From assembly GCA_964612345.1 (NCBI GenBank), contig CAZTEH010000004.1, positions 18,265 through 82,264 on the forward strand: DNA of 64,000 nt. The letters run 5' to 3'. Shown one piece after another: positions 6,804 to 44,886 of this stretch (positions are counted from its first letter, which is position 1; each line of letters starts with the position of its first letter). The notes beneath the pieces are model-generated. The model saw only the letters and a program-made list of their open reading frames with translations, was not told the DNA's origin and did no database searches. The DNA comes from an uncultured Oscillospiraceae bacterium. GTDB taxonomy: Bacteria; Bacillota; Clostridia; Peptostreptococcales; Anaerovoracaceae. The position numbers were made by a program, and so were the translations under genes.

Positions 6804-6859
6804 ATTCAAAGACCATGAGAGTGAAATAATTTTGTTATAATCCGAAAGGGGTGGAAAAT

Positions 6860-12300: not shown

Positions 12301-12311
12301 GTTATGAGAAG

Positions 12312-12500: not shown

Positions 12501-12519
12501 TTGGCCCATCCAACAAGCA

Positions 12520-12900: not shown

Positions 12901-13141
12901 CGTAATAAAGAAAAGCACGCCAACATCGAAATTGAAATGCTTGTCAATCTTAACATTGACAGTTATATAAGTTGGCGCTAATTAGCACCAATTCAATTAA
13001 AAACCTGAGTTTGGAAGTTGATTCAAATCTTTTACATTGCAAGGTGCTCATGTACTTGCCTCGACTTTTTCTCATATCTTAGCACAATTGAAAGAAGTCC
13101 TAAACTCTCAAAGAGTTAGCTAGTTTCACACATTACGTAAA

Positions 13142-14035
13142 TTATATATCCATAAACTTTGTCGCAACAATTGCATTTTGCGGTAATAAACAAGGTATAT
13201 TATCAATTATCGGATAAGCTAACAAACTATCCTCTGAAAAATAAGCATTCTTACTTTTAATAAAATTTGTTTTTGTAATAGGACAACATAATGGATCAAT
13301 TATATCTTCATTTAATTCTTTTTTAATTATCATTATGCCAGTAGGATTCAATGGGTTAGAGCATAAATCAAAAAGCCGATATTCTATAATATTAAATCCA
13401 AGATTGACTGCTGTATCATGTAAATTAGTGACATATCCATGATGTAGCATTCTTTGCCTTGCTTGCTCATTTGATAGTTCATATAAGGGCTCTAATAATA
13501 TTAAATACTTATTAGTTATTCGATACAGCTCAATTAGGGCGTCTTTTTCCCTTCCTCCGTTAGGCTCAATAGAGTGAGAGGTGTAAACAATATCAATTGA
13601 ATTGTCTTTGAATGGAGAACAAAACAAATCTCCAACTAACAAATCAATATTATGTGCATTTAATTCATTCATAAATTTTGTGGCATATTTTACTCTTGAC
13701 CATGATATATCAAATCCATAGCTTTTTAAAGGTTTGTCTTTCAAAAAAGAAATCATTGGAATTAAAGTTGTGCCTTCACCAACCCCTACCTCTAGCAGGG
13801 TTTGATACTTGCACAAATTATTGATTATTTTAGAAATATGTTCTGCATATTTATTTTTAAATTCCTTATTTTGATTATAGTCTTTAATATAAGTGCCTGC
13901 TTGAAAGTCATAACTTATCATAATGTCTTCTATTGAATTTTGTTTACATCCATCCATTTCATTTAAAAATCTAGTGATATTAACATTTTCTGAATATAAT
14001 TGCTTTATTCTATTCAATATTTTTAATTTATCCAT
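13142..14035 (-). CDS. Class I SAM-dependent methyltransferase fused to a C-terminal Trm112-like zinc-ribbon-type tail
   Basis: 297-aa ORF with SAM motif I LLEVGVGEGT. The tail IIDPLCCPITKTNFIKSKNAYFSEDSLLAYPIIDNIPCLLPQNA resembles Trm112/UPF0434 (CP.c...l......C.....YPi.dgIP.lL...A). It is divergent from the glycan operon. Confidence 0.75.
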   Translation of the reverse strand: MDKLKILNRIKQLYSENVNITRFLNEMDGCKQNSIEDIMISYDFQAGTYIKDYNQNKEFKNKYAEHISKIINNLCKYQTLLEVGVGEGTTLIPMISFLKDKPLKSYGFDISWSRVKYATKFMNELNAHNIDLLVGDLFCSPFKDNSIDIVYTSHSIEPNGGREKDALIELYRITNKYLILLEPLYELSNEQARQRMLHHGYVTNLHDTAVNLGFNIIEYRLFDLCSNPLNPTGIMIIKKELNEDIIDPLCCPITKTNFIKSKNAYFSEDSLLAYPIIDNIPCLLPQNAIVATKFMDI

Positions 14036-14166
14036 ATGTGTACTCCTTCATCTATAATATTTAAATAATATCATATATAATAATGAATGGATAATAAATC
14101 TTATAAGAAGTGTAATACTATTCGATTATAATAAGCTAAAGATTATTGTTTAAGATCACCTTTTTA

Positions 14167-14195
14167 TTGACAATGATAAGAAAGTAATATATTCT
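14167..14195 (+). promoter_or_regulatory. Candidate promoter of the 25-gene plus-strand glycan operon
   Basis: TTGACA (14167-14172), 17-nt spacer, TATTCT (14190-14195), about 60 nt upstream of the first gene. Confidence 0.4.
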
Positions 14196-14257
14196 AATGT
14201 TGTTCGGAAAATGAACGTTAAGTTTATGAACAATTGCTTTTAATGCGGAGAATAATA

Positions 14258-14758
14258 ATGACAGAAGAATTGGATATCCTAAGAATAGTAGTAGAGAATC
14301 CAAGTATATCCCAAAGAAAGATTGCAGAACAAACCGGCATATCTTTGGGACAAGTTAATTTTTTGATTAAAAAATGCGTTAAAAAGGGTTTGATTAAAAT
14401 AGAAGGACAAACATCTAAATCAATAAGATATAATCTTACGCCAAAAGGAATTGCTGAAAAGGCGTTGCTTACGCTTGAGTATGTTAAGATTTCATATGGA
14501 GCAGTAATCTCGTTAACTGATAAAATCAGAGCATTTGCAGAGCAGAATGAAAATAGCGGTAAACAAATATGTGTTTATGGACCACAGGATGAAATGATGG
14601 AGATTTGTAAATTAGCCCTTGGTGATCGAGCCACGTATTACCATAAATTTAGTGATATTAAATCAGTAAATTCTGATTTAATTTTATTTTACTGGGATGA
14701 CAGTATACAATTGATAAAAGATTTAAATGAAATAAAAGCAGTGAATATTTTATCATAA
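14258..14758 (+). CDS. Winged-helix (MarR/TrmB-like) transcriptional regulator, first gene of the glycan operon
   Basis: The track ORF starts at TTG 14234. ATG 14258 lies 7 nt after GGAG. HTH signature: ILRIVVENPSISQRKIAEQTGISLGQVNFLIKKCVKKGLIKIEGQ...YNLTPKGI. Confidence 0.7.
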   Translation: MTEELDILRIVVENPSISQRKIAEQTGISLGQVNFLIKKCVKKGLIKIEGQTSKSIRYNLTPKGIAEKALLTLEYVKISYGAVISLTDKIRAFAEQNENSGKQICVYGPQDEMMEICKLALGDRATYYHKFSDIKSVNSDLILFYWDDSIQLIKDLNEIKAVNILS

Positions 14759-14785
14759 GACATAAGTTCAAAAATGGAGGTAGTA

Positions 14786-15766
14786 ATGAATAAAGTCTTA
14801 GTTACAGGTGCAGATGGATTCATTGGAAGCCACCTGGTAGAACAATTAATAAAAGAAGGTAAAAGTGTGAAAGCATTTGTATATTATAATTCATTCAATT
14901 CATGGGGATGGCTTGATAACATTCCAAAAGATATTCTACGCGAGGTAGAAATCTTTTCTGGAGACATTCGCGACCCGAATGGTGTAAGAACTGCAATGAA
15001 AAATGTTAATGGCATATACCACTTGGCAGCATTAATTGCGATACCATTTAGTTATCATTCTCCTGATTCCTACGTTGATACCAATATTAAAGGCACGTTG
15101 AATGTGTTGCAGGCTGCAAGAGAATATGAAACAGAAAGAGTTCTGATTACATCAACATCAGAAGTATATGGAACAGCTAAGTATGTGCCGATCGACGAGA
15201 ATCATCCGTTTCAGGGCCAATCACCATATAGTGCGACCAAAATTGGAGCAGACAGACTGGCCGAGAGCTTCTATAAAAGCTTTAACATGCCTATTACTAT
15301 CGTTAGACCGTTCAATACGTTTGGCCCAAGGCAATCTGCTAGAGCTGTGATTCCAACAATTATTGCTCAACTGTTAACCGGAGACAATAATATTAAATTA
15401 GGAAGTATGTCGCCAACACGAGATTTTAACTATGTTAAGGATACGGTAGATGGATTTATTGAGATTGCAAAAAGTAATAATACAATTGGAGAAGAAATCA
15501 ATATAGCCACACAAAAGGAAATTTCAATTGGTGGATTGGCAAATATGATTATACAAAAAATAAATCCAAAGGCTCAAATTATTTGCGATGAAGAAAGGCT
15601 GAGACCTGAGAATAGCGAAGTAAACAGGCTGCTTGGGTCAAATAAAAAAATTAAGGAATTAACCAACTGGAATCCAAGGTATTCTTTTGAAGAAGGAATA
15701 GACGAAACGATAGAATGGATTAAAGACCATTTAGATAAATATAAAACGGATATATACAATATTTAA
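14786..15766 (+). CDS. legB: NAD-dependent NDP-HexNAc 4,6-dehydratase, LegB type (legionaminic acid pathway)
   Basis: MNKVLVTGADGFIGSHL Rossmann start, STSEVYG and YSATK catalytic motifs, ARPFNTFGPRQSARAVIPTII and LRPENSEV. From memory these align closely with Campylobacter Cj1319/LegB. The track start at 14774 is probably too early. Confidence 0.75.
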   Translation: MNKVLVTGADGFIGSHLVEQLIKEGKSVKAFVYYNSFNSWGWLDNIPKDILREVEIFSGDIRDPNGVRTAMKNVNGIYHLAALIAIPFSYHSPDSYVDTNIKGTLNVLQAAREYETERVLITSTSEVYGTAKYVPIDENHPFQGQSPYSATKIGADRLAESFYKSFNMPITIVRPFNTFGPRQSARAVIPTIIAQLLTGDNNIKLGSMSPTRDFNYVKDTVDGFIEIAKSNNTIGEEINIATQKEISIGGLANMIIQKINPKAQIICDEERLRPENSEVNRLLGSNKKIKELTNWNPRYSFEEGIDETIEWIKDHLDKYKTDIYNI

Positions 15767-15781
15767 CATGGAGTTAAAAAT

Positions 15782-16954
15782 ATGCAAATGTTTGTTCCAT
15801 TATCAGTACCGAATTTAAACGGTAACGAGAAACTATATATGAATGAAGCGATAGATACGGAATGGGTCTCTACTGCAGGACCTTTTGTTCAAAGATTCGA
15901 GAAAGAAATCGCTGAGTATGTAAATGTCAGCAATGCGGTGGCATGTCAAAGTGGTACTTCGGGATTGCATTTGGCATTACTAAATTTAGGGATAAACAAA
16001 AATCATGAAGTAATAGTGCCAACTTTGACTTTTATCGCAGCGATTAATCCTGTGAAGTACGTAGGTGCTGAACCAATCTTTATGGATTGTGATGATAGCT
16101 TGTGTATAGATCCCATTAAGATCCAGGAGTTTATTAATCAACAAGCTATTTTTGATGGAGATGTTCTAATAAACAAATCTACAAATAAAGTCATAAAAGC
16201 AATGATAGTCGTGCACGTGTTTGGTAATATGTGCGACATGGAAAAACTTTATGAGATATCACGAAAGTATAATATAAGCATAATAGAAGATGCTACGGAA
16301 GCATTGGGGACAAAGTATGTGAGTGGTAGTTTTCAGGGCGAATTTGCAGGAACAATAGGACATGCAGGTGTTTACTCATTTAATGGCAATAAGATTATAA
16401 CAACTGGCGGCGGTGGTATGGTAGTTTCAAAAAACAAAAGGGTCATAGATGATATAAGATATTTATCTACACAGGCGAAAAATGATGAAGTTTTCTTTAT
16501 ACATGATGAAATAGGTTATAATTATAGAATGACTAATATTCAAGCCGCTCTTGGTGTGGCACAATTAGAGCAATTGAATGATTTTATTAGAATAAAACAA
16601 GAAAATTACATCACATACCAAGATTGTCTTGATTCGATTAATTCTTTAAGACTATTAGGCTTTAGGGATGGAACTCATCCAAACTATTGGTTCTACTCGA
16701 TATTGATAGAGGATGAATGTAACATCACGAATCGTGAAATGATATCCAGATTGGCTGATTATAAGATACAAGCAAGACCTGTTTGGGGATTAATACATCA
16801 GCAAAGGCAATATTTAAATAGTCAAAAATATAAAATAGAGAAAGCCCAATATTATGGCACAAGGATTGTAAATGTACCCTGTAGTACAAACTTAACTAAG
16901 GAAGATATTAAATATATTTCTCAAGTAATTAAAACAATAGTGGAAAACAAATAA
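15782..16954 (+). CDS. legC: DegT/DnrJ/EryC1-family PLP aminotransferase, LegC type
   Basis: 390 aa with LSVPNLNGNEKLYMNEAIDTEWVST, FNGNKIITTGGGGMV (Schiff-base Lys region) and GYNYRMTNIQAALG. It sits directly after the LegB-type dehydratase. Confidence 0.75.
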   Translation: MQMFVPLSVPNLNGNEKLYMNEAIDTEWVSTAGPFVQRFEKEIAEYVNVSNAVACQSGTSGLHLALLNLGINKNHEVIVPTLTFIAAINPVKYVGAEPIFMDCDDSLCIDPIKIQEFINQQAIFDGDVLINKSTNKVIKAMIVVHVFGNMCDMEKLYEISRKYNISIIEDATEALGTKYVSGSFQGEFAGTIGHAGVYSFNGNKIITTGGGGMVVSKNKRVIDDIRYLSTQAKNDEVFFIHDEIGYNYRMTNIQAALGVAQLEQLNDFIRIKQENYITYQDCLDSINSLRLLGFRDGTHPNYWFYSILIEDECNITNREMISRLADYKIQARPVWGLIHQQRQYLNSQKYKIEKAQYYGTRIVNVPCSTNLTKEDIKYISQVIKTIVENK

Positions 16955-16964
16955 GGTAATTTGT

Positions 16965-18011
16965 ATGGATTTCAAGAAAATAATTGTAACAGAGAAATTA
17001 AAAATCAGAGATGCACTGGAACTTTTGAATACTACGGCGAAAAAAGTTTTATTTGTTGTTGATAAAGATAAACTTGTTGGAGCTATCAGCGACGGGGATA
17101 TTCGCAGATGGATTTTAAAAAATGGCGGCATAGACGAAAATGTTAGTAATGTGATGAACCCTAATCCAATAAAGATCTATAAAAAGGACAATCTCTTGGC
17201 AGGGAAATTAATGGAAAAACATGGAATTCTTTCCGTTCCAGTTGTTAACCAAGATGATGAAATTGTATGGATTTATTATTGGAATGATATAGCTGAAACG
17301 CAGGTCACACAAAAAATAATGCTGCCTGTTATTATTATGGCAGGGGGTAAAGGTGAAAGACTATTACCGTTTACTACAATTGTTCCGAAGCCGCTTATTC
17401 CAATAGGAGAAATCCCTATTGTTGAGAGAGTAATAAATAGCTTTAGGCAATATGGCTGCAATGATTTTACGCTTACGATAAATTATAAGAAAAATATGAT
17501 AAAAGCATATTTTGAAGAGATTGAAAAAGACTATGAATTAACATATGTTGAGGAGAATAAACCACTTGGTACTGGAGGAAGTTTATACCTTTTAAAAAAT
17601 AAAATAAATGATACTTTTATAGTAAGTAATTGTGATATTTTATTAGAAGTAGATTATGCAGAAGTATATGATTTCCATAAGAAACATAACAATTTAATTA
17701 CAGTAATAACTTCTTTAAGAAGATATGTGGTGCCTTATGGTGTGGTTGATATTAATGATGATGGAAGCATTAATAATATGATTGAAAAACCACAACTGGA
17801 TTATTTAGTTAATACAGGAGTATATTTTTTAGAACCGGAAGTCTTAGATTATTTGGTAGAAGATGAGTTTATACATATTACCGATCTAGTGGAAATATGT
17901 TTAAAGAATAATAAGCGAGTAGGTACTTATCCAATCAGTGGAGATGCATGGCTGGATATGGGCCAATTTGAAGATATGGAAATCATGAAAGAAAGATTAA
18001 AGAAGGTTTAA
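16965..18011 (+). CDS. ptmE: CBS-domain sugar-1-phosphate nucleotidyltransferase, PtmE type (GlcN-1-P guanylyltransferase-like)
   Basis: N-terminal CBS pair (LVGAISDGDIRRWIL, ILSVPVVNQDDEIV), then the NTP-transferase motif IIMAGGKGERLLPFT...PKPLIPIG and LGTGGSL. Campylobacter PtmE has the same architecture and feeds the GDP-linked legionaminic acid route. Confidence 0.7.
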   Translation: MDFKKIIVTEKLKIRDALELLNTTAKKVLFVVDKDKLVGAISDGDIRRWILKNGGIDENVSNVMNPNPIKIYKKDNLLAGKLMEKHGILSVPVVNQDDEIVWIYYWNDIAETQVTQKIMLPVIIMAGGKGERLLPFTTIVPKPLIPIGEIPIVERVINSFRQYGCNDFTLTINYKKNMIKAYFEEIEKDYELTYVEENKPLGTGGSLYLLKNKINDTFIVSNCDILLEVDYAEVYDFHKKHNNLITVITSLRRYVVPYGVVDINDDGSINNMIEKPQLDYLVNTGVYFLEPEVLDYLVEDEFIHITDLVEICLKNNKRVGTYPISGDAWLDMGQFEDMEIMKERLKKV

Positions 18012-18015
18012 CTAT

Positions 18016-28040: not shown

Positions 28041-28084
28041 AATAATAGTGATTATAATTAATGAGAGAGCGAAGGAAGAAACCA

Positions 28085-29642: not shown

Positions 29643-29660
29643 AACTATAGGAGGAAAAGG

Positions 29661-31558: not shown

Positions 31559-31590
31559 TAAGACATATGAGAGAAAGGGATGTATGAACT

Positions 31591-32928: not shown

Positions 32929-32956
32929 TATAATTTTATTGGAAGGGATAACTATT

Positions 32957-34965: not shown

Positions 34966-34987
34966 TAGAGTAAAATGGTGATAATTA

Positions 34988-35758
34988 ATGATTACAAATG
35001 GCAACGAAATGACTGAATTATGTACAATTATTACGGTCTGCTATAATAGCGAAGAATTTATCAAGCAGACGATTGAATCAGTGTTATATCAAACGTATAA
35101 GAATTTTGAGTATATAATAGTTGATGGTGGATCATCAGATGAAACTCTTAATATTATAAAATCATATGAACCAAAATTCGATGGAAGACTGAGGTGGATA
35201 TCCGAGCCTGATGGGGGCATTTATGACGCAATGAATAAAGGAATTTTATTAGCAAAAGGAAAATGGATTGGAATAATAAATAGTGACGATTGGTATGAGC
35301 AAGAGGCTATTAGTATGATAGCGAATTTATTTAGCAGTAACAATGATATTCAACTCATCCATGGAAAAATTAGGATAATTGACTTTAATAATAACTTTAA
35401 AAAAATCGTGGGAGGTTTGGAAGATGTAAAAAGGCTCTCATATAAAGATTTCATGCCCATTTGCCATCCAAGTTCTTTTGTAAGAATAGATGTATATAAT
35501 AAGTTAGGCTTGTTTAATCAACAGTATAAAATTGCTGCTGATTACGATTTTGTAATGCGGTGCGTAGAAGATAAAATAAATATAAGATATATTGATGAAA
35601 TAATTTGTAATTTTAGGGACGGTGGCATTAGTAATACTAATTGGAAAAAATCGCTAAAGGAATCATTAATAATAAAAAAAATTTATGACAATAGCAGAAT
35701 AATACCATATATAACTTTCCTGAGAAGCTATTTGATTAACTATATTAAATCTAAATAG
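34988..35758 (+). CDS. GT2-family (GT-A) glycosyltransferase
   Basis: CTIITVCYNSEEFIKQTIESVLYQTYKNFEYIIVDGGSSDETLNII and INSDDW (DXD). Confidence 0.85.
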   Translation: MITNGNEMTELCTIITVCYNSEEFIKQTIESVLYQTYKNFEYIIVDGGSSDETLNIIKSYEPKFDGRLRWISEPDGGIYDAMNKGILLAKGKWIGIINSDDWYEQEAISMIANLFSSNNDIQLIHGKIRIIDFNNNFKKIVGGLEDVKRLSYKDFMPICHPSSFVRIDVYNKLGLFNQQYKIAADYDFVMRCVEDKINIRYIDEIICNFRDGGISNTNWKKSLKESLIIKKIYDNSRIIPYITFLRSYLINYIKSK

Positions 35759-35781
35759 TAATGGTGATTGAGGAAGTATTA

Positions 35782-36885
35782 ATGAAAACAATTTTTGTCA
35801 ATGCCACAGCTACAACAACAGGTGGAGGATTAATCATACTGCAACAATTTTTGGAGACCTTACCAATTCAGGATACTGATAATGTTTATTACGTGTTTTG
35901 CGCTGCGGATGCTGTAAATAATTATAACGGTAGTAATATAAAAATCATTAACAATATATATAAGAGAAAGTGGATCGGCAGAATTTTATGGGATAATTTC
36001 GGAATTGAAAAGTGGATGAAAAACTGTAGAGTTAAACCGGATTTAATAGTGTCATTTCAAAATACTGGTGTTAGGCTTGGCAGAAGAATCAAACAGATAA
36101 TTTATTATCATCAATCTATACCGATGTATGAGTACCAGTGGTCATTAATAAAGAAGCAAGAAAGAAAGCTATGGATTTATAAAAATATTTATCCATGGTT
36201 TGTTAAGAAACATTTTTATGCAGATGATGTACTCGTTGTACAGAGTTCTTGGATGAAAGAGGCTAGTAGTAAAGTCCTTGATATACCATTAGATCGTATT
36301 AGGATTATTAAACCAACGATACAATTATATGGACATATTAAAGCCAGTCCAAAACGTAAATCTGAAAGGGAGAGTTTCAATATATTCTATCCAGCATCCG
36401 GCGTTGCATTTAAGAATCATAAAATAATATATGATGCATTAATAATTATAGCTAATACTAGGAAAGAGCTATTTAAAAACATAAAGTTTTATATTACACT
36501 AGAAAATGACGAAAAATTACATCAATATAATTCAGAGCTAAACGAAAACATTATATTCTTAGGACAATTAGAATACTCAAAATTGCTTGAATTCTATCCC
36601 CAAATGGATTTAATGGTGTTCCCAAGTTATTTGGAAACAGTGGGGTTACCATTATTAGAAGCCGCATATTTTGGGCTTGAAATCATAGCTTCAGATTTGC
36701 CGTATGCTATGGAGGCAGTAAGTGAATATAATGGAGCTAGTTTTGTAAAACATGACGATGCACGGACTTGGGCTGATGCGATAATTTCTGCATATGAGAA
36801 TCAGAAGAAATATGATGGATTTTTGCCTAATCAAAATAACAGTTGGGAAGATATGTTTCTGTTAATAAAGCAACAATTGATGTAG
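35782..36885 (+). CDS. GT-B glycosyltransferase (GT4 family-like)
   Basis: ATG 35782 follows GAGGAAG (track start 35761). The C-terminal VFPSYLETVGLPLLEAAYFGLEIIASDLPYAMEAV is an E-X7-E motif. Confidence 0.8.
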   Translation: MKTIFVNATATTTGGGLIILQQFLETLPIQDTDNVYYVFCAADAVNNYNGSNIKIINNIYKRKWIGRILWDNFGIEKWMKNCRVKPDLIVSFQNTGVRLGRRIKQIIYYHQSIPMYEYQWSLIKKQERKLWIYKNIYPWFVKKHFYADDVLVVQSSWMKEASSKVLDIPLDRIRIIKPTIQLYGHIKASPKRKSERESFNIFYPASGVAFKNHKIIYDALIIIANTRKELFKNIKFYITLENDEKLHQYNSELNENIIFLGQLEYSKLLEFYPQMDLMVFPSYLETVGLPLLEAAYFGLEIIASDLPYAMEAVSEYNGASFVKHDDARTWADAIISAYENQKKYDGFLPNQNNSWEDMFLLIKQQLM

Positions 36886-36897
36886 AGGTGTAAAACA

Positions 36898-37917
36898 ATG
36901 TTTAAAAATAAAATACTGTTAATAACAGGTGGAACCGGATCTTTTGGTAATGCTGTTTTAAAAAAATTTTTATCTAGTGATGTTGCGCAGATCCGAATTT
37001 TTTCACGTGACGAAAAAAAACAGGACGATATGAGGAATCTGTACAAGAACGATAAAATTAAATATTATATCGGAGATGTAAGGGACTATTATAGTGTCAT
37101 GAACGCAATGCACGGCGTGGACTATATTTTCCATGCGGCCGCGTTAAAACAGGTACCTTCATGTGAGTTTTTTCCCATGGAGGCTGTAAAAACAAATGTA
37201 GTCGGTACAGATAATGTTCTGACTGCCGCGATTGAAGCAAAAGTCAAAAAGGTTATATGCCTTTCCACAGACAAAGCCGCTTATCCGATCAACGCCATGG
37301 GGATATCAAAGGCGATGATGGAAAAGGTTTTTGTGGCAAAATCCAGAACGATTGACGATAAAAAAATGACGATTTGCGGGACAAGATATGGTAATGTAAT
37401 GGCTTCCAGAGGTTCTGTAATACCGCTTTTTGTCGATCAAATCAAAAAAGGTTTGCCATTGACTATCACGAATCCGAATATGACCAGATTCCTTATGAGT
37501 CTGGATGAGGCAGTGGAATTGGTCGAATTTGCTTTTAAGCATGCGGATAACGGTGATTTAATGGTCCAAAAATCACCGGCTTGTACAATAGAGATTTTGG
37601 CGCTCGCCGTAAAGGAAATCTTCAAAGCAGACAATCCGATAAAGACGATTGGAACCAGACATGGAGAGAAGTTGTTCGAAACACTCCTGACAAAAGAGGA
37701 ATATGCAAAAGCTGTGAATATGGAAGAGTATTTTAAGGTCCAGGCAGATAAAAGAGATTTAAATTACGACCAGTACTTTTTTGAAGGCGATGAACGCTTG
37801 TCACGGGAGGATGAATACACATCCCATAACACAGAACGTTTGACACTGAAACAGGTTAAGGAAAAATTAATGACATTGGATTATATCCGGGAAGAATTGA
37901 AAGAATGGGGCAAATAA
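36898..37917 (+). CDS. UDP-GlcNAc 4,6-dehydratase/5(3)-epimerase of the CapE/FnlA/WbjB/QnlA type
   Basis: MFKNKILLITGGTGSFGNAVLKKFL...IRIFSRDEKKQDDMR...HAAALKQVPSCEFFPMEAVKTNV...LSTDKAAYPINAMGISKAMMEKVFVAKSR...GTRYGNVMASRGSVIPLF. From memory this is nearly collinear with S. aureus Cap5E. Confidence 0.9.
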   Translation: MFKNKILLITGGTGSFGNAVLKKFLSSDVAQIRIFSRDEKKQDDMRNLYKNDKIKYYIGDVRDYYSVMNAMHGVDYIFHAAALKQVPSCEFFPMEAVKTNVVGTDNVLTAAIEAKVKKVICLSTDKAAYPINAMGISKAMMEKVFVAKSRTIDDKKMTICGTRYGNVMASRGSVIPLFVDQIKKGLPLTITNPNMTRFLMSLDEAVELVEFAFKHADNGDLMVQKSPACTIEILALAVKEIFKADNPIKTIGTRHGEKLFETLLTKEEYAKAVNMEEYFKVQADKRDLNYDQYFFEGDERLSREDEYTSHNTERLTLKQVKEKLMTLDYIREELKEWGK

Positions 37918-37918
37918 A

Positions 37919-38776
37919 ATGCGGTTTCTGATTTTCGGAGCTTCCGGCATGGCGGGCCATACAATCGTTGCTTATCTGATGGAGCAGGGGCACGATGTGA
38001 CATCGTTCTCCAGACAGCCCTTGAATTATTGTAATAAGGTCGTGATCGGCGATGTATTAAATGATCAGGTAATCGAAAAGGCAATACGGGAAAACAATTA
38101 CGATGTTATTGTAAATTGTGTCGGAGTTTTAAATCAGACTGCAGAAGAGGACAAGCCAAAAGCTGTATTGCTGAATAGCTATCTACCGCATCGAATCAGC
38201 TCCTGTGCGAACCGGTATGGATCCAGGCTCATTCAAATGAGCACTGATTGTGTATTTTCCGGAAACACTGGTGGGTATCAGGAAGATTCCTTACCGGACG
38301 GGAAAACCTTTTATGATCGGACGAAGGCTTTAGGGGAAGTCAATGATGCCGTGAATCTGACATTTCGAAATTCCATTATCGGACCGGATATCAATCAAAA
38401 GGGAATCGGATTATTCAACTGGTTCATGAAGCAATCGGGTAGCCTATCGGGTTTCAATAAAGCGATCTGGACGGGTGTGACAACCTTGACACTGGCAAAG
38501 GCAATTGAAGCCGCAGCGGAGCAGAATCTGACCGGCATTTATCATTTGGTCAACAATAAGACGATCAGTAAGTACGAGTTGCTTAAGCTATTCAATTATT
38601 ATTTTAAAGCGGATAGACTAACGATTTCGCCTAATGATAAGGTAAACGTGGATAAGTCATTGATCAACACCAGAAAGGATTTTGATTTCATAGTGTCTGA
38701 TTATGATGTTATGGTTATGCAAATGCACGATTGGATCGACGGGCACAAGGAATTCTATCCGCACTATTTTAAATAA
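37919..38776 (+). CDS. RmlD-like SDR reductase (WbvR/QnlB type rather than CapF/FnlB type)
   Basis: 285 aa with MRFLIFGASGMAGHTI, STDCVFSG and YDRTKALGE (YxxxK). Its size and architecture fit dTDP-4-dehydrorhamnose-reductase-like C4 reductases, not the ~370-aa two-domain CapF. Confidence 0.65.
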   Translation: MRFLIFGASGMAGHTIVAYLMEQGHDVTSFSRQPLNYCNKVVIGDVLNDQVIEKAIRENNYDVIVNCVGVLNQTAEEDKPKAVLLNSYLPHRISSCANRYGSRLIQMSTDCVFSGNTGGYQEDSLPDGKTFYDRTKALGEVNDAVNLTFRNSIIGPDINQKGIGLFNWFMKQSGSLSGFNKAIWTGVTTLTLAKAIEAAAEQNLTGIYHLVNNKTISKYELLKLFNYYFKADRLTISPNDKVNVDKSLINTRKDFDFIVSDYDVMVMQMHDWIDGHKEFYPHYFK

Positions 38777-38791
38777 TATAAGAGGTATAAG

Positions 38792-39919
38792 ATGAATACA
38801 AAGTTGAAAGTGATGACCATTATCGGTACCAGGCCGGAGATTATAAAATTAAGCGAGATCATAAAAAAATGTGATGTCTACTTTGACCATATTCTGGTCC
38901 ATACGGGACAAAATTGGGACTATACACTGAACAAGGTGTTCTTTGAGGAGCTGGGCCTGCGTGAACCTGATTATTATCTGGACTCAGTGGGGAAAAATCT
39001 TGGTGAAACAATGGGCAATATCATAGCCAAGTCCTATGATCTGCTGGTTGAGGTAAAGCCGGATGCGCTTCTAATCCTGGGCGACACCAATTCAGCACTT
39101 TCCGCTATATCCGCAAAACGATTGAAGACACCGATTTTTCATATGGAAGCGGGCAACCGATGCTTTGACGAAAACCTTCCAGAGGAAATCAACAGAAAGA
39201 TCGTAGATCATATCAGCGATATTAATTTGCCTTATACTGAGCATGCCCGCAGATATCTGCTGGCGGAAGGTATTCGGAAAGAGCATATCTATGTCACCGG
39301 CTCACCCATGTTTGAGGTGATCGACAAATACAGAACGCAGATCGAAGAGAGCGATATCCTGAAACCGCTGGAATTGGAGAAGAGTAAGTATATCATTGTC
39401 TCGGCTCATAGAGAAGAAAATATAGATAATGAAAAAAATTTCCTTTCACTGATGACGGCAATCAATCGAATTGCAGAAATTTACAATATGCCTGTGGTTT
39501 ATTCCACACATCCCAGAAGCAGGAAATTTATTGACGAAAGAGGATTCCAATTCCATAAGCTGGTACGGAGCCTGAAACCGTTTGGTTTCTTTGACTACAA
39601 CAAGCTGCAGCTCAATGCATTTTGTGTGCTGTCCGACAGCGGAACGTTGGCGGAGGAGACAGCGATCCTGAAATTTCCATCCGTCTCGTTGCGAACTTCA
39701 ACGGAGCGGCCGGAGGCACTTGATAAAGGCGGTATGGTCTTAGGCGGCATAAAAACAGATAATATCCTGCAGGCCGTAGAGCTATCTAGAACGATGTGGG
39801 AGAACGGTGACAAGGGGATCGATGTCCCGGCATATTCTGATGGGAATGTATCGGGGAAGATCGTGAAAATGATCCAGAGCTATACGAAAATAGTCAATAA
39901 GGTTATCTGGGACAAATAG
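38792..39919 (+). CDS. UDP-HexNAc 2-epimerase, non-hydrolysing (CapG/FnlC/QnlC/WbvD type)
   Basis: KVMTIIGTRPEIIKLS, HTGQNWDY, LILGDTNS and HMEAGNRCFDENLPEEINRKIVDHISD. Confidence 0.9.
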   Translation: MNTKLKVMTIIGTRPEIIKLSEIIKKCDVYFDHILVHTGQNWDYTLNKVFFEELGLREPDYYLDSVGKNLGETMGNIIAKSYDLLVEVKPDALLILGDTNSALSAISAKRLKTPIFHMEAGNRCFDENLPEEINRKIVDHISDINLPYTEHARRYLLAEGIRKEHIYVTGSPMFEVIDKYRTQIEESDILKPLELEKSKYIIVSAHREENIDNEKNFLSLMTAINRIAEIYNMPVVYSTHPRSRKFIDERGFQFHKLVRSLKPFGFFDYNKLQLNAFCVLSDSGTLAEETAILKFPSVSLRTSTERPEALDKGGMVLGGIKTDNILQAVELSRTMWENGDKGIDVPAYSDGNVSGKIVKMIQSYTKIVNKVIWDK

Positions 39920-39944
39920 AACGTTACAAATCAAATCATAGAAA

Positions 39945-39990
39945 AAGACAGCCTGCTTCCGATCATTTCAGGATCTGAAGCAGGCTTTTT
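39945..39990. terminator. Bidirectional terminator between the convergent glycan transcription units
   Basis: GCCTGCTTC (39951-39959) pairs with GAAGCAGGC (39977-39985). It is flanked by AAAAA upstream and TTTTT downstream. The stop codon of the minus-strand GT lies in the loop. Confidence 0.7.
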
Positions 39991-41285
39991 ATAAAGTTTT
40001 CTGAGGAAAAATGCTCTTCATAATATTTTCTGGAATTCTTCCCGTATTGGCTGACTGCGGAGGGATCGGCAGCGTGTCCGTAACAAAGGCTGGCAAATTG
40101 GTAAAGGTTTTCTGCAAGGGTTAGATGTTCTTCTGCCTCACAAACCAGTCCGCATTCCGCTTCCTGGATCACAGCGGCGGTTTCGCCATCAATAGCAGCT
40201 AAAATCGGCTTTCCTGCAGCCATATATGTCTGCACCTTATTCGGAAGTGTGCTGGATATCACGTCATCCTTCTTCAAAGTTATGAGCATAGCATCGGCGA
40301 TACTGTAAAATTGGGGCATTGCCTCCAACGGATGCCGGCCGTGAAAGACCACACCTGCTTTAAGCCCTGTTTCGCTCGGATTCTCTGCCTCTGCATCGCT
40401 GACTAGGATATCCAGCTCTTTTGCAAGTGTGATACTGTTCTCATAAGCTGATCCATCTCCCACAATATGGACCAGTACGGGGTATGGCAATTGTTTTTTA
40501 GAGTGTAATAGATCCAACTTCAATTCATAGACTGCCTTCAGAATCGTTTCTACACCCTGCATTTTTCCGATGTTGCCGGCAAAGACAAAATTACAGACAT
40601 CGGATACCGACTCGGAACAGATGCTTTCGGGGCCGGAAAATAAATCTTGAGCAAACATGGGGATATGTGTAATGGGCCCCTTATAGTCGAGTATTTCTCT
40701 TAAGTATTTGTCAAAATGTCTCGAGCTTGTGATAATGTGATCACACTTATTGTAAATGTAACGGCTGATCAGCTTAATTGTATTATAAAAGAATCCATGA
40801 TTTTTCAGCCCTACAGAGACGATGCTTTCAGGCCAAAGATCAAAGCAATACAAAAACATAGGCAGCTTTAACTTTTTCTTGAGAATAATTGCGGGGATCC
40901 CCATTGTGACTGGAGAATACTGTGTTACCAAAATCCGATCGAAAGTGGTACCGGATTTTTTCGATTGCTTTGCAATACGGTAAGCTGCACGGGAAGCGTT
41001 GAACGCAAAGCTTAAATAATTGAGCATCAAATTCCGTTTGCCAGTTTTTCGAGGATAAAGCCTGCATCGGAGCACGTTGACATTATTGATCAACTCAGTA
41101 AAGATTCCGTGAGATGTATTTTTCAAATCTCGCCACTGATATTCAGGAAAAATTTTTCCCATCGGATAATTCGGCTGTCCTGTGAGCACCGTCACCTCAT
41201 GCCCGAGAGAGGCCAATTTGGAGCAGATGTCGTTGACTCCAAACTGTTCGGGATAATAATATTGAGAGATAATCAAAAATTTCAT
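39963..41285 (-). CDS. GT4-family glycosyltransferase of the WbuB/Cap5L type (candidate 6-deoxy-L-HexNAc transferase)
   Basis: GAGGAG RBS. MKFLIISQYYYPEQFGVNDICSKLASLGHEVTVLTGQPNYP is the typical WbuB-like N-terminus. C-terminal LPNKVQTYMAAGKPILAA. Confidence 0.75.
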   Translation of the reverse strand: MKFLIISQYYYPEQFGVNDICSKLASLGHEVTVLTGQPNYPMGKIFPEYQWRDLKNTSHGIFTELINNVNVLRCRLYPRKTGKRNLMLNYLSFAFNASRAAYRIAKQSKKSGTTFDRILVTQYSPVTMGIPAIILKKKLKLPMFLYCFDLWPESIVSVGLKNHGFFYNTIKLISRYIYNKCDHIITSSRHFDKYLREILDYKGPITHIPMFAQDLFSGPESICSESVSDVCNFVFAGNIGKMQGVETILKAVYELKLDLLHSKKQLPYPVLVHIVGDGSAYENSITLAKELDILVSDAEAENPSETGLKAGVVFHGRHPLEAMPQFYSIADAMLITLKKDDVISSTLPNKVQTYMAAGKPILAAIDGETAAVIQEAECGLVCEAEEHLTLAENLYQFASLCYGHAADPSAVSQYGKNSRKYYEEHFSSENFIKSLLQILK

Positions 41286-41308
41286 GGCAACTCCTCAATC
41301 GATTGAAT

Positions 41309-42259
41309 TTAACCCCGATATTTAATAATGCCGTAGTCCACACGGACCCCGCTCAGGTATTCCTCTACTTCTTCTTTAATTCCATCTTCAAAAGAAAGCG
41401 GATCGTAGCCAAAATCATTCTTTGCATCTGCATGACTAAATGCCTTGTCCTCCTGCATTCTCATTACCTGTTCAACGGTAATGATAGCATTTTTAAACAA
41501 TGCATTATAGACCTTTGCCGCTAAAATCGAGAAAGAAATCGGGATAGGGATAATCTGGATATTACTGCCTATATAGGAACGAATGATCTTTATTATTTTC
41601 AGGTAGGAAATCTGATCTTTGCCGGATAGGTTGTACTCCTTATTCATCGTTTTGTCTGGGTTCAGCAGCACATCATAATAGGCATTTCCAAGATCTCTCG
41701 CATGCACCGGCTGCATGAGATTCTGACCGTTGCCGAACAGTGGAAAGATCCTATGCTCTTTCAAATATCCGATCAATCGATACATATTTCTATCAGCGGA
41801 GGATCCGTAAATCATAGTTGGTCTTAATACGGTGCAATTCAGAATACGTTCTCCGTTTTGATTGAACACCTTATGACCAATTATTTCATCCTCGATATTA
41901 ATATAAACTTCGGATGCACTCTTATATTTTGAAAAACGACCAGTGGTATGGACAAGAATTACCCAATTGGCATGACTTCTGATTGCTGAATTAACAATTA
42001 TTAAAGAACGCGTAATCCCTGCAATATGGATAACCGTCTGGACTCCCTTCATTGACTCGATTAAGAAATCCTCATCCTCAATATTACCGACAACGAATTC
42101 AATGTCCAGACTGCATTGGTCGAATATTTTATATTTCTCTGGTGTCTTTTCTCGGCTGTCTCTCATTACACAACGAATCCTGCCCTGGTATCCCTCGGAT
42201 GCAAGTCTTTTTAACAGCCATTTACCACTGTGTCCCGTAATTCCTGTAATATACAACAT
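41309..42259 (-). CDS. NAD(P)-dependent sugar epimerase/reductase (Cap5N-like SDR)
   Basis: MLYITGITGHSGKWLLKRL Rossmann start, 316 aa. It lies immediately downstream of the small phosphoglycosyl transferase, as in the S. aureus cap5M-cap5N arrangement. Confidence 0.7.
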   Translation of the reverse strand: MLYITGITGHSGKWLLKRLASEGYQGRIRCVMRDSREKTPEKYKIFDQCSLDIEFVVGNIEDEDFLIESMKGVQTVIHIAGITRSLIIVNSAIRSHANWVILVHTTGRFSKYKSASEVYINIEDEIIGHKVFNQNGERILNCTVLRPTMIYGSSADRNMYRLIGYLKEHRIFPLFGNGQNLMQPVHARDLGNAYYDVLLNPDKTMNKEYNLSGKDQISYLKIIKIIRSYIGSNIQIIPIPISFSILAAKVYNALFKNAIITVEQVMRMQEDKAFSHADAKNDFGYDPLSFEDGIKEEVEEYLSGVRVDYGIIKYRG

Positions 42260-42279
42260 ATTTTCTTACTCCGATCGGA

Positions 42280-42900
42280 TTATAGATTCGCTTTCGGCCC
42301 GCCTTCGGAAACACCTTTCCGCGCAAGTACGCTGAATATGGTCATAACGAATATACGAACATCCAAAGAGAAACAGATATTTTTCGCATAGAAGCCATCT
42401 AGTTCCGCCTTGACGTCAATCGGCAGTTCATCTCTACCGTTTACCTGCGCCCATCCTGTTATTCCGGGTTTCATTGAGTTGGCGCTGATTCCTGTCTTCG
42501 ATTTCTGATTTTCTCTCGCCTGCAGGAGATCGTATTGGTTCCATAAAGCCGGTCTGGGACCAATAAATGACATCTCCCCATTTAGGATATTCAGAAGCTG
42601 AGGAAGTTCATCAAGACTTGTTTTTCTGAGGATTTTACCAGATTTGGTTATATAGCTTTCAGGATCCTGAAGAAGATGAGTCGGAGTATCTTTCGGTGCG
42701 TTTGCCATCATTGTTCTGAACTTATATATTTCAAAAAAAACTCCGCTTTTCCCAAATCTCTTCTGCTTAAATAAAACTGGACCCTTGGAATCCAGTTTTA
42801 TTATAAGTGAAATCAAGAATAATATCGGTGCCAGCAATACAATCAGACATAGAGCAAAGATACGATCTAAGATCTGCTTAACATGAAGATACAGTTTCAT
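42280..42900 (-). CDS. Small monotopic phosphoglycosyl transferase (PglC/Cap5M/WbaP-C-terminal type, Bac_transf)
   Basis: 206 aa with one N-terminal re-entrant helix (IFALCLIVLLAPILFLISLIIKL), then DSKGPVLFKQKRFGKSGVFFEIYKFRTM, DELPQLLNIL.GEMSFIGPRP and PGITGWAQVNGR. Confidence 0.9.
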   Translation of the reverse strand: MKLYLHVKQILDRIFALCLIVLLAPILFLISLIIKLDSKGPVLFKQKRFGKSGVFFEIYKFRTMMANAPKDTPTHLLQDPESYITKSGKILRKTSLDELPQLLNILNGEMSFIGPRPALWNQYDLLQARENQKSKTGISANSMKPGITGWAQVNGRDELPIDVKAELDGFYAKNICFSLDVRIFVMTIFSVLARKGVSEGGPKANL

Positions 42901-42921
42901 CCTTTTAAATCCTTTAACTTT

Positions 42922-44886
42922 TTATTCTATATTTGAGTGAGCTTTCAGCATCATATTGATTGAGATACCCATACCGAGCAGTCCGTAAAACATTGGCATA
43001 ACAGATACAGTGCTATCGTTCACGAATCCAGAAACAAGAAATCCACAGATACCAAGGAATATACCAACACCAGTATAAGTGATAAAGCGATCGTATTTAG
43101 CACGCCGATATATTGAAAAGCTTTGTATAATGTAAATCCCCCAAAGAACCAGCAATGAGAGCATTGAGATTCCGCCCGTTCCAATAATCGCATCAAAGTA
43201 CATGTTATGAGGTTTATCAACGACAATATTTATATTAGTTGAAAATGTACCAGAATTATATTTGCCGACATAATCGTCATGAGGGAAATAGATACAGAAA
43301 GTATCAGCACCATGCCCTAATATTAGAGTATCCTTCATTAGAGGGATTGATCTTGACCAAATGTAGCCACGACCACTACCAAAGCCTTGGTTATTTTTCC
43401 ATCCGATTGCATCTACTTTACGCAAATCAATTATCTTGCCAAATCCATTTAAGTATTTGGGGCCATCTGCTGTAATCATAAATGGCCATTCGTCTCCATT
43501 TGTTCCAATTACAAAATAATGATTTGAACTTTCATCTTGAGCAGGTCTAACCGTGATCAACTTAAATCGGGGATCATTGACTTTATAAATTGGAGTGACA
43601 TTTGTAGGAGCCAAATCCAAGATATTATCTTCAGAATCACTGATTTGCAAAGCGATTGGATCATCAGGGAATGTTTTGAATTTCACTTCATTGCCATCGA
43701 AACTTAAAACAATTGAATCTCCGGAGATTGTCATATAGTCTAATTTATGTTGAACATTTGAATCAGTACTAACACCTGGAGAAGTTGAAGTATCTGTTGC
43801 TGAAAGTTCAGACTGGACAGATCCGCTCTTTCCCAATACACTATCGATGGCATTAGTTAATTCGGGAAGCCATCTTTCATAACTAATACCGGCGATTACA
43901 ATGGTTAAAGCTAGTAGGATTGTAACGGGTTTCCACCACTGTATGATTCTTTTGTTAAGAACAATAATTCCTATCATAACAACAACAGCCATACCTAAAA
44001 GTCCACCTGACGAGGCAGAACCTATCAAGTTAAAAATTAGCAGAGTGAACAATGCGCCCCAGGTAAATTTTCTCCACAATGGTTCTTTATCTTGTTTCAT
44101 AACAGACATTATAAATATCATGCCGAACAATGGAATAAGTAATGTTAAGTAAAAAGATACATAGTTTATATTATAAACAGTTTGATATATTTCTTTGTTT
44201 TGGAAAGTAAAATTTAAACTATCAACATCTTTCCAGAACCAACTTGGAGTTAATAATTTTTTACCAATATCAGTTCTGAAAAAATCATGATCGAGTGCCT
44301 GTGTCAATCCTAGGATTCCCAAAAGAGCGCTCGTTACAGCAAGTGGATATACAACCCATTTAACATCCCGTTCTGTACGTATCGTATTGATAACATAGAA
44401 TAAAACGATCATATAGCCTAAAAGAGAAAGCGTGCCTTCAAATCGATCGTTCCAACCCCATAAAGCAAATATCTTGTAATCTGAGGTGGCATAAGATAAT
44501 AAAACAAAAACTGTATAGATTATCATCGGGATATATGCAAAGCTTCGTTTTAAGGAAAAAGATTGTGAAAAAACTCTATATAAGAGAAGTACTAATACAA
44601 AGACAGCACATATAATTATTGCTTGCATTTTATAGTAACTGAAAAAGTCAGTTAGCTGATTTTTTCCGCCGCTCCAAAAAAACTGGCTCATTGGTCTTTC
44701 GTAAATGACCATTCTAGTGAGTATGATAATAACCGCAGTGAAAATGGATATTGGAAGCATTTGGAACCAATGAGTATTCTCACCTATTTTTGGCGCACAA
44801 CTCATATTATAAAGATAACCTGGTAAAAATCTATTGCTATTATTTACTTTCTTTTCTACATCCTTTTTCTTTGTATCCTTCGACAT
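42922..44886 (-). CDS. Wzy_C (O-antigen ligase/PglL/WsaB-type) polytopic membrane protein with an enlarged external loop; candidate O-oligosaccharyltransferase
   Basis: 654 aa, GGAGG RBS, about 10 TM segments in residues 40-335 and 2-3 in 570-650. The loop carries the ligase-type signatures GSGRGYIWSRSIPLMKDTLILGHGADTF and KPHNMYFDAIIGTGGIS (compare RL.iW...l.....P..G.G.G.F and aHN.yL..l.E.G..G). Confidence 0.7.
   Translation of the reverse strand: MSKDTKKKDVEKKVNNSNRFLPGYLYNMSCAPKIGENTHWFQMLPISIFTAVIIILTRMVIYERPMSQFFWSGGKNQLTDFFSYYKMQAIIICAVFVLVLLLYRVFSQSFSLKRSFAYIPMIIYTVFVLLSYATSDYKIFALWGWNDRFEGTLSLLGYMIVLFYVINTIRTERDVKWVVYPLAVTSALLGILGLTQALDHDFFRTDIGKKLLTPSWFWKDVDSLNFTFQNKEIYQTVYNINYVSFYLTLLIPLFGMIFIMSVMKQDKEPLWRKFTWGALFTLLIFNLIGSASSGGLLGMAVVVMIGIIVLNKRIIQWWKPVTILLALTIVIAGISYERWLPELTNAIDSVLGKSGSVQSELSATDTSTSPGVSTDSNVQHKLDYMTISGDSIVLSFDGNEVKFKTFPDDPIALQISDSEDNILDLAPTNVTPIYKVNDPRFKLITVRPAQDESSNHYFVIGTNGDEWPFMITADGPKYLNGFGKIIDLRKVDAIGWKNNQGFGSGRGYIWSRSIPLMKDTLILGHGADTFCIYFPHDDYVGKYNSGTFSTNINIVVDKPHNMYFDAIIGTGGISMLSLLVLWGIYIIQSFSIYRRAKYDRFITYTGVGIFLGICGFLVSGFVNDSTVSVMPMFYGLLGMGISINMMLKAHSNIE

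Follow-up and report, generated by a model that had tools for sequence, protein, structure and literature searches.

The window considered here is a stretch of 64,000 nucleotides from an uncultured Oscillospiraceae bacterium (Anaerovoracaceae in the GTDB lineage; assembly GCA_964612345.1, contig CAZTEH010000004.1, positions 18,265 to 82,264 of the forward strand). It contains a glycan island of about 32 kb (13142-44886), located 3' of an array of genes for surface proteins with SLH domains. The island can be subdivided into two transcription blocks: 26 packed genes on the + strand (14234-39919) and a convergent operon on the - strand (44886 to 39963), which encodes, in this order, a ligase-like membrane protein, a phosphoglycosyl transferase (PGT), a short-chain dehydrogenase/reductase (SDR) and a GT4 glycosyltransferase. 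Every open reading frame (ORF) of at least 100 aa in the window was scanned against Pfam and NCBIfam, and membrane proteins were located by a hydropathy scan. An initial annotation had listed sugar pathways, about seven glycosyltransferases and three methyltransferases for this locus, together with one PGT, one fused ABC exporter and one Wzy_C-type protein. Pfam and NCBIfam confirm this parts list, with each gene at the place it had been given. The Wzy_C-type protein (654 aa), encoded by the first gene of the - strand operon, is probably a protein O-oligosaccharyltransferase.

The gene of this protein (42922-44886, - strand) is preceded by a promoter-like site at 44968-44940, and its product contains at least 11 transmembrane (TM) segments according to hydropathy. 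Its match to the Pfam family Wzy_C (PF04932, clan CL0499) reaches 29.2 bits (E 9.1e-7) against a gathering cut-off of 31.7, and a precomputed PF04932 match is found in most of its homologues. Of the Pfam matches that the initial annotation had anticipated, those to PF02397, to ABC_membrane with ABC_tran and to the GT2 and GT4 families were indeed obtained, whereas PF04932 stays under its cut-off and PF05159 is a weak match. No NCBIfam model matches the 654-aa protein, and a sequence search of the PDB with the family profile gave no match. An exact copy of the protein was not recorded in public assemblies. An AlphaFold model based on a 120-sequence alignment (pLDDT 88.6) displays a large outer loop at about aa 350-560. 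When the model was compared to the PDB with Foldseek, the O-antigen ligase WaaL was retrieved (7TPG_B, probability 1.00, E 3.5e-3, TM-score 0.54 on the target), while all other matches had E values of at least 0.3.

Inserted in the large outer loop is a beta-rich domain of about 110 residues (about aa 380-490, within the stretch 43387-43800, - strand, residues about 363-500), which is modelled with a pLDDT of about 95 and is kept in relatives down to 28% identity. It belongs to no Pfam family and has no confident match in the Foldseek/PDB search; it may bind the acceptor. Even with sequences of only 27-33% identity in the alignment, the residues R148, E150, R506, D528, D557, K558 and H560 do not vary. 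For R506 and H560, in and just past the large outer loop, this is true of three alignments, made from 16, 120 and again 16 diverse sequences. In WaaL-fold ligases a conserved Arg and His of the outer loop are essential for ligation. With a threshold of E<=1e-30, an exhaustive profile search retrieved 1,388 or more clusters, defined at 50% identity. Named members are found in the Anaerovoracaceae, Caloramator, Clostridium, Desulfosporosinus, Desulfitobacterium, the Acetivibrionales and the diderm Halanaerobiales. By sequence, then, the 654-aa protein is assigned to a large uncharacterised Firmicute family.

Only two further membrane proteins are encoded in the island, namely the PGT and the fused ABC exporter, and no other membrane machinery is present. 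The PGT (42280-42900, - strand, 206 aa) belongs to Bac_transf (PF02397, 200.8 bits). It possesses a single N-terminal hydrophobic helix (16-34) with a Pro break, as well as the motifs SLDELPQL, which includes the Asp-Glu dyad, and GPRP. In size, helix, family and motifs it is a small monotopic PGT of the PglC type. The ABC exporter (21383-23167, + strand, 594 aa, 6 TM segments) is a fusion of a transmembrane and a nucleotide-binding domain (Pfam ABC_membrane and ABC_tran). Its best NCBIfam model is PglK (NF050066) with 358 bits, followed by MsbA with 287. Because the equivalog cut-off for PglK is 1000 bits, the exporter is labelled as PglK-like and, on sequence, not as PglK itself. It is the sole candidate in the island for the flipping of a lipid-linked glycan. 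A copy of this exporter with 64% identity was encountered in an unrelated metagenome contig (locus L085, 10001-16201), there too beside NeuB and CMP-transferase genes; the pair of nonulosonic acid and ABC exporter may travel as a mobile module. As the initial annotation had stated for the island, Wzx/MOP flippases, Wzz/kinases, LCP ligases and CsaB (PS_pyruv_trans) gave no Pfam match in any scanned ORF of the window, and the same is true for TagA/WecG. Neither a membrane dehydratase of the CapD/PglF type nor CapA/B is present in the window.

The genetic context of the ligase was compared among its relatives. Within the Anaerovoracaceae, 133 genome loci encode homologues with 42-67% identity to the window ligase, and metagenome proteins reach up to 85%. 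In these loci the ligase is kept while the adjacent glycan genes change, and the distal sugar genes differ almost everywhere. Two types of initiating module can be distinguished. The first consists of the PGT, the SDR, a WbuB-like GT4 and the trio of FnlA-type genes (the window; Sinanaerobacter), while the second is bacillosamine-like and combines a DegT aminotransferase, a PglD-like protein and the PGT with a PglF-like dehydratase (Anaerovorax, Aminipila). Export genes were counted in the 45 related ligase loci with at least 5 kb on either side (well-flanked loci). A MOP flippase is found near the ligase in 13 of them and Wzm/Wzt in 7; a fused ABC exporter occurs in none (0/45), which makes the window an exception. 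In Anoxybacterium hadale and in Desulfitobacterium the ligase directly adjoins a Wzm/Wzt pathway. Such pathways finish their polymer in the cytoplasm and require no polymerase, so this pairing argues for a ligase. Repeat-unit polymerases usually diverge strongly from one another, each being suited to a single repeat unit. A protein that is conserved and does not co-vary with the glycan genes is not what is expected of a repeat-unit polymerase.

Two more distant homologues, which align end to end with the window ligase at 28-34% identity and have its motifs in common, are encoded in telling surroundings. In Desulfitobacterium metallireducens the gene order is four CWB2 surface proteins, the ligase, a WbaP-type PGT, GT2 glycosyltransferases, RmlA/C and Wzm/Wzt. 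In Halanaerobium congolense (locus L087, 5835-21815) it is PilB, PilT, PilC, the ligase, a pilin, a prepilin peptidase, minor pilins, PilMN and a secretin. This is a true pilin, as it carries an N_methyl motif; its Ser-rich C-terminus ends in ...KASISN. Look-ups of the gene context for a Bacillus sp. (P0173) and for Selenihalanaerobacter (P0482) yielded no locus. The presence of a ligase homologue in a complete type IV pilus operon suggests pilin O-glycosylation in this diderm Firmicute. 

The WaaL fold, the conservation at 42-85% identity despite changing glycan genes, the Wzm/Wzt neighbours and the member in a pilus operon support the claim of the initial annotation that the 654-aa protein acts as a ligase and not as a polymerase. 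If it instead polymerised the repeat units of a capsule or exopolysaccharide in the manner of Wzy, these would then be released or attached by unknown means. The Wzy_C clan does include polymerases, homologues are named 'polymerase' in some sources, and the homologue of Clostridium tyrobutyricum has a Wzz/kinase neighbour. However, Wzx and Wzz/kinase are lacking in the island, the protein stays conserved from genus to genus although the glycan loci differ, it is paired with ABC-2 pathways that use no polymerase, and its sole structural match is a ligase. A polymerase is consequently regarded as very improbable. A separate Wzy was not found in the flanks of the relatives, where the unannotated ORFs that were checked have 0-3 TM segments; this result is neutral for either reading.

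The sugar pathways of the island indicate what kind of glycan might be transferred. Upstream of the large block lies a class I SAM methyltransferase (13142-14035, - strand, 297 aa; Pfam Methyltransf_25/11/31). The + strand block itself starts with a MarR/winged-helix regulator (14234-14758; HTH_24, MarR_2), ahead of which a promoter-like site is found at 14167-14195. It continues with a nonulosonic acid block of the legionaminic acid type (14774-21347, + strand; Pfam and NCBIfam), comprising a LegB dehydratase, a LegC aminotransferase, a CBS-nucleotidyltransferase, a NeuD-type acetyltransferase, a 297-aa protein, a NeuB-type synthase and a CMP-sugar synthetase. LegB (517.8 bits, cut-off 475), LegC (472.1, cut-off 420) and NeuD (168.3, cut-off 160.8) score above their NCBIfam thresholds, while the NeuB-type synthase (337.6 bits against 399.65) and a PseF-type match remain below. 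A hydrolysing 2-epimerase of the LegG/NeuC type was not found in this block, the sole Epimerase_2 gene (38792) being part of the FnlA block. As a result of this missing epimerase and the sub-threshold synthase, the exact nonulosonic acid is uncertain. The 297-aa protein (18691-19584, + strand), which has only a weak GT2 match, occupies the slot in which LegG/NeuC usually resides in legionaminic acid clusters. Either the nonulosonic acid may be non-standard or this protein may be an unrecognised enzyme for the 2-epimerase step.

The ABC exporter is followed by a soluble protein of 567 aa (23224-24927, + strand) with a weak match to Capsule_synth (PF05159, E 1.7e-3), no NCBIfam match and no TM segment. 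From its gene position it is a candidate glycosyltransferase for nonulosonic acid or a Kdo-type sugar. The 481-aa neighbour of the exporter homologue in L085 shows no detectable kinship to it. Next to it lies an FkbM-family methyltransferase (24964-25767, + strand; Methyltransf_21, E 3e-14). The branch thereafter (25843-30425, + strand; Pfam and NCBIfam) contains a Gmd-like dehydratase (25843), a GT4 (26844), a WbuC-like cupin (28061), a DegT aminotransferase (28497) and a SAM methyltransferase (29661); its predicted product is a sugar of the GDP-4-amino-4,6-dideoxyhexose type. A 388-aa GT-B-like candidate glycosyltransferase (30392-31558, + strand) has weak NCBIfam matches of the galactofuranosyltransferase type (E 2e-7) and a weak match to Glycos_transf_1. 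It precedes a GDP-L-fucose pathway (31591-34965, + strand) of ManC (NTP_transferase and MannoseP_isomer), Gmd (GDP_Man_Dehyd, 516.9 bits) and an Fcl-type epimerase/reductase (Epimerase), as well as a GT2 (256 aa) and a GT4 (374 aa) glycosyltransferase (34988-36885, + strand; Pfam).

The FnlA block (36898-39919, + strand) opens the core that is common to the relatives, in which genes of 63-73% identity adjoin the ligase. It encodes a pathway to a UDP-2-acetamido-2,6-dideoxy-L-hexose, made up of an FnlA-type 4,6-dehydratase/5-epimerase (NCBIfam, 546 bits), a reductase and a UDP-GlcNAc 2-epimerase (Pfam). The reductase between the other two (37919-38776, + strand) is RmlD-like and 285 aa long; in the loci L001, L082 and L086 a gene of about 370 aa takes this slot. 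Going by what is known of these pathways, this strain may have L-RhaNAc or L-QuiNAc as its 6-deoxy-L-HexNAc instead of L-FucNAc. On the opposite strand, the WbuB/WcaI-like GT4 (39963, 440 aa) and the SDR epimerase/reductase (41309, 316 aa; together 39963-42259, - strand; Pfam and NCBIfam) are conserved partners of the PGT and are syntenic in L001, L004, L019, L025, L091, L095 and L101. The glycosyltransferases thus comprise four firm (26844, 34988, 35761, 39963) and three weak cases (18691, 23224, 30392), and there are three methyltransferases (13142, 24964, 29661).

Base composition follows this division into variable and conserved parts. The GC content is 29-38% at 13-37 kb, 40-44% at the conserved core of 37-43 kb and 40-50% in the flanks. 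Low GC content and a position near surface-protein genes have been described for the clusters of surface-layer glycosylation (slg) (PMC2943079). The low-GC variable centre and the nearby surface-protein genes agree with these published traits and support a role of the island in protein glycosylation. Before the island, a gap of 1.3 kb contains no intact ORF but only decayed fragments of an IS66-family transposase (11900-13100, + strand), detected on stop-free fragments (TnpB_IS66, E 1.2e-8; zf-IS66, E 4.8e-4). Lying between the SLH array and the low-GC island, they resemble a scar of recombination or insertion at the boundary. The combination of a low-GC variable centre, a conserved core of higher GC content and the IS66 scar fits with cassette exchange by recombination, comparable to slg and O-antigen loci (PMC2943079).

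The SLH array consists of six genes about 1.3 kb before the island, as the initial annotation had noted, the sixth being cut by the start of the window. Of this gene only the N-terminal part remains (1 to about 590, - strand; three SLH repeats, E 2.8e-30), which was recovered by tblastn with the SLH regions of the window and by Pfam. The five complete genes are located at 1094-4012 (- strand) and at 4337-6739, 6851-7480, 7493-8935 and 9403-11802 (+ strand; Pfam SLH, E 1e-16 to 5e-37). They encode proteins of 972 aa and of 800, 209, 480 and 799 aa, respectively, each with a signal peptide, seen as an N-terminal hydrophobic segment, and these are candidate S-layer or S-layer-associated proteins. 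A hairpin resembling a terminator follows the last SLH gene (11859-11884). A 175-aa ORF at 34-561 (+ strand), which has no family match and overlaps the truncated SLH gene on the other strand, is almost certainly no real gene. At the far end of the window, past unrelated metabolic and two-component genes, the region 58977-63761 encodes an SNF2-family helicase of 1150 aa that bears a SWIM finger. A tRNA-Val gene (62588-62663) and the gene of a Fic-domain protein are located there too, and an SNF2 homologue is found near the ligase in Sinanaerobacter (L001).

Secreted proteins are also encoded on the other side of the ligase gene. A secreted envelope protein with two Cu_amine_oxidN1 (CuAO_N1) repeats (45136-46182, + strand; Pfam, signal peptide) lies between the ligase and a secreted TolC-like protein (46274-47497, - strand; two OEP domains, E 2.5e-22), an arrangement that is repeated in 18 related genome loci. 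The OEP gene adjoins the ligase in 24 genome loci and is among its commonest neighbours, often directly upstream and on the same strand within the Anaerovoracaceae. After its signal peptide, the OEP protein of the window carries a tract rich in Thr, Ser and Ala. Orthologues are found in L003, L013, L021, L023, L026, L031 and L083, and many orthologues have such a tract, of variable length; in Aminipila it extends over some 70-90 aa of SAITTTN-like repeats. Fusion proteins in which SLH domains precede the OEP domain are encoded in L018, L019 and L079, and L025 is a similar but weaker case (415 aa). When all ORFs in the related loci were scanned for Ser/Thr-rich tracts, the only real secreted proteins that were flagged were the OEP orthologues and a few SLH proteins, which is suggestive of these proteins as substrates. 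In the window, the secreted neighbours of the ligase are OEP, CuAO_N1 and SLH proteins, and the TolC-like protein is a candidate acceptor. The Anaerovoracaceae are taken to be monoderm, a lineage in which a TolC-like protein would have no outer membrane to serve. The TolC-like gene prompted the idea of a diderm host with a true lipopolysaccharide (LPS) ligase WaaL. This was rejected, as the named close relatives all belong to the Anaerovoracaceae and no LPS genes were seen. The diderm Halanaerobiales do carry members of the family, but the Halanaerobium gene sits in a pilus operon. The literature yielded nothing relevant on S-layers or glycoproteins of the Anaerovoracaceae.

From these elements a pathway can be proposed, with moderate confidence, for a single complex glycan that is assembled inside the cell on undecaprenyl phosphate and finally passed en bloc by the ligase to envelope proteins that are secreted. 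The PglC-type PGT (42280) would prime undecaprenyl phosphate with the first sugar phosphate, and the adjacent SDR (41309) probably helps to make this first sugar. Subsequently, the WbuB-like GT4 (39963) would add the 6-deoxy-L-HexNAc from the trio of FnlA, RmlD-like reductase and 2-epimerase. About six further soluble glycosyltransferases would then attach fucose, the 4-amino-6-deoxyhexose and the legionaminic acid-type sugar, and the three methyltransferases may modify or cap the chain. The finished lipid-linked glycan would be flipped to the outer face of the membrane by the fused ABC exporter (21383). In the last step, the WaaL-fold ligase (42922) would transfer it to Ser, Thr or Tyr residues of secreted envelope proteins. 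The neighbouring SLH proteins of S-layer type are the likely targets, possibly together with the adjacent Thr-rich TolC-like protein. A protein as acceptor is favoured by the contexts in D. metallireducens and H. congolense and by the neighbouring envelope-protein genes: of the 45 well-flanked loci, 25 have a gene of this kind (SLH, CWB2, OEP or CuAO_N1) no more than 5 kb away from the ligase.

Several observations weigh against this proposal. No experiment or sequence feature names the acceptor, and that it is a protein is what we infer. The initial annotation had asked whether the island always sits beside SLH genes; only 12 of 37 large related loci have an SLH gene within 10 kb of the ligase. 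An LCP gene is found in the 10-kb flanks of the ligase in 10 of the 45 loci. In C. tyrobutyricum the homologue adjoins a Wzz/tyrosine-kinase (BY-kinase) gene and a WbaP-type PGT, beside CWB2 proteins, which suggests a polysaccharide pathway in that organism. Enzymes of the PglL/PglS class combine their ligase domain with PglL_A and Wzy_C_2 (PMC12645811). Neither these two domains nor TPR domains were found in the 654-aa protein, for which Pfam returned, up to E 10, only Wzy_C and two noise matches, and the parallel to PglL put forward in the initial annotation is weakened to that extent. Finally, Orf19 of Clostridioides difficile matches the CDD model 'sorted_by_XrtN' (PMC6254364 supplement). 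As the window ligase matches no NCBIfam model, it may, by sequence, belong to another subfamily than this validated S-layer ligase.

Some of these observations would be accommodated if the product were a cell-wall glycopolymer, either a secondary cell wall polysaccharide or one resembling an O-antigen. The Wzy_C protein would then join or polymerise lipid-linked units, as was proposed for WpaA/WpaB in the assembly of the secondary cell wall polymer of Bacillus anthracis (PMC6030368), and an LCP protein encoded elsewhere would attach the product to peptidoglycan. The product could even serve as the ligand of the neighbouring SLH proteins. This explanation draws on the SLH genes adjoining the locus, on the LCP genes mentioned above, with two loci (L116 and L134) that combine the ligase, a MOP flippase, an LCP and also an SLH gene, and on the surroundings of the C. 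tyrobutyricum homologue. SLH binding, however, requires pyruvylated ManNAc (PMC6030368), and the window lacks matches to CsaB as well as to LCP and TagA/WecG. Moreover, close relatives have conserved SLH domains but hypervariable glycan genes. WpaA/WpaB were assigned to PF13425 (O-antigen_lig; PMC6030368), a family without a match in the 654-aa protein at E values up to 10. The strong conservation of the latter and its pairing with Wzm/Wzt likewise argue against a repeat-unit polymerase. A cell-wall glycopolymer is therefore considered rather unlikely, although it is the most probable of the alternatives.

Alternatively, a ligase of TacL or WaaL type might move the glycan from undecaprenyl diphosphate to a membrane glycolipid, resulting in a variable lipoglycan, a 'Gram-positive O-antigen'. 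The pneumococcal TacL, a member of the O-antigen ligase family that makes lipoteichoic acid, provides a precedent in a Gram-positive organism (PMC5727136). The WaaL-like fold of the 654-aa protein and the combination of a conserved ligase with variable glycan genes, which resembles WaaL/O-antigen loci, point in the same direction. The conserved neighbourhood, however, contains no gene for the synthesis of a glycolipid anchor, and the pilin operon and S-layer clusters in which family members are found favour a protein. To our knowledge, no lipoglycan is known for the Anaerovoracaceae either, and a lipid acceptor is judged to be quite unlikely.

The reading as a protein O-glycosylation island, which had been put forward in the initial annotation, is hence upheld with regard to the parts list and the assignment of the ligase, whereas S-layer proteins as its acceptor are not demonstrated. 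Most likely, the island serves to attach a complex sugar chain to cell-surface proteins; systems of this kind are known, but some of its parts are unusual. Protein O-glycosylation by a Wzy_C ligase via a lipid-linked glycan is proven in few Gram-positives, namely Geobacillus, Paenibacillus and one C. difficile lineage. If the proposed pathway is correct, the mechanism would extend to the Anaerovoracaceae, little-studied anaerobes from bioreactor, sludge and animal-gut metagenomes, with a different toolkit (a PglC-type initiator and a fused ABC flippase) and a chain that includes a sialic acid-like sugar. The conserved core with its swappable cassettes may also serve as a natural template for glyco-engineering in Gram-positive hosts.

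The ligase family and its candidate substrates form a more interesting lead than the island alone. The ligase points to a family of very large size that is spread across the Clostridia and lacks annotation, and its neighbours (surface-layer proteins, a pilin and the Thr-rich TolC-like protein) are testable candidate substrates. Tentatively, and with more doubt than confidence, a Firmicute-wide family of WaaL-fold protein O-oligosaccharyltransferases with a beta-sandwich insert may be envisaged, which would run general glycosylation of envelope proteins in Clostridia. A conserved ligase and initiating module would be combined with hypervariable glycan cassettes, and the targets would be encoded next door: SLH/CWB2 proteins, the pilin of Halanaerobium and, in the Anaerovoracaceae, the TolC-like protein with its Thr-rich N-terminal tract. 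Such a family would be the Gram-positive counterpart of PglL in Neisseria or of the general O-glycosylation of Bacteroidetes.

The closest functional parallels are the slg systems, in which a lipid carrier bears the growing glycan in the cytoplasm, an ABC transporter exports it and a membrane ligase with a Wzy_C domain transfers it (PMC2943079, PMC6254364). C. difficile Ox247 no longer glycosylates its S-layer once the ligase gene is disrupted (PMC2943079; PMC6254364). In layout, the island resembles the slg clusters of Geobacillus stearothermophilus NRS 2004/3a (WsaB), Paenibacillus alvei (WsfB) and C. difficile Ox247 (Orf19), which likewise are low-GC glycan clusters near surface-layer genes with a Wzy_C ligase. 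The D. metallireducens locus of the ligase homologue repeats the published slg architecture of these three organisms. The slg systems, however, depend on a large Gal-1-P transferase of the WbaP type and export rhamnose-rich polymers through Wzm/Wzt, an ABC-2 transporter with two components. The window contains a small PglC-type PGT and a fused exporter of the PglK/MsbA type instead, and its glycan is predicted to contain fucose and amino-deoxy sugars besides a nonulosonic acid.

WaaL and TfpO/PilO may also be compared with the ligase. WaaL (7TPG) likewise possesses a multi-TM core and a large outer loop with a conserved Arg and His, to which R506 and H560 may correspond. Its identity to the window ligase is 11%, the window protein is about 250 residues longer and contains the beta-sandwich insertion, and the lipid A-core acceptor of WaaL is not expected in a host whose relatives are taken as monoderm. 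In TfpO/PilO the gene of the protein substrate adjoins that of the ligase (PMC12645811). TfpO/PilO of Pseudomonas aeruginosa is of the Wzy_C family and lies beside its substrate gene, just as the Halanaerobium member is located between pilC and the pilin gene, a comparison made by gene position. No pilin gene is present in the window, in contrast, and the window family is about 600-650 aa long with a beta insert.

For the initiating module, the FucNAc modules of Staphylococcus aureus cap5/8 and of the P. aeruginosa O11 type (CapE/F/G, CapL, CapM, CapN) provide a comparison. Their gene set, which starts the glycan with D-FucNAc and then L-FucNAc, is taken by us to match the window core of small PGT, SDR, WbuB/CapL-like GT4 and FnlA-type trio, going by the gene content of these loci and by the Pfam and NCBIfam matches. 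In comparison to cap5/8, the middle enzyme of the trio in the window is RmlD-like (285 aa) and not of the FnlB type, and Wzx, Wzy, CapA/B and a CapD/PglF-type dehydratase are lacking. With the Campylobacter Pgl system (PglC, PglK) the window shares the small monotopic PGT and the fused protein of the ABC flippase type. The bacillosamine-type start in many relatives, with DegT, the PglD-like protein, the PGT and a PglF-like dehydratase, also recalls Pgl. The Neisseria PglL differs from the window ligase: the latter lacks PglL_A and Wzy_C_2, contains a beta domain not known in PglL and belongs to a Firmicute that is taken to be monoderm. The Pgl systems of Campylobacter and Neisseria transfer a finished lipid-linked oligosaccharide en bloc, as is proposed for the window. 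By analogy, the window system would function like the Gram-positive slg systems, while its toolkit appears closer to that of the Campylobacter and Neisseria Pgl systems.

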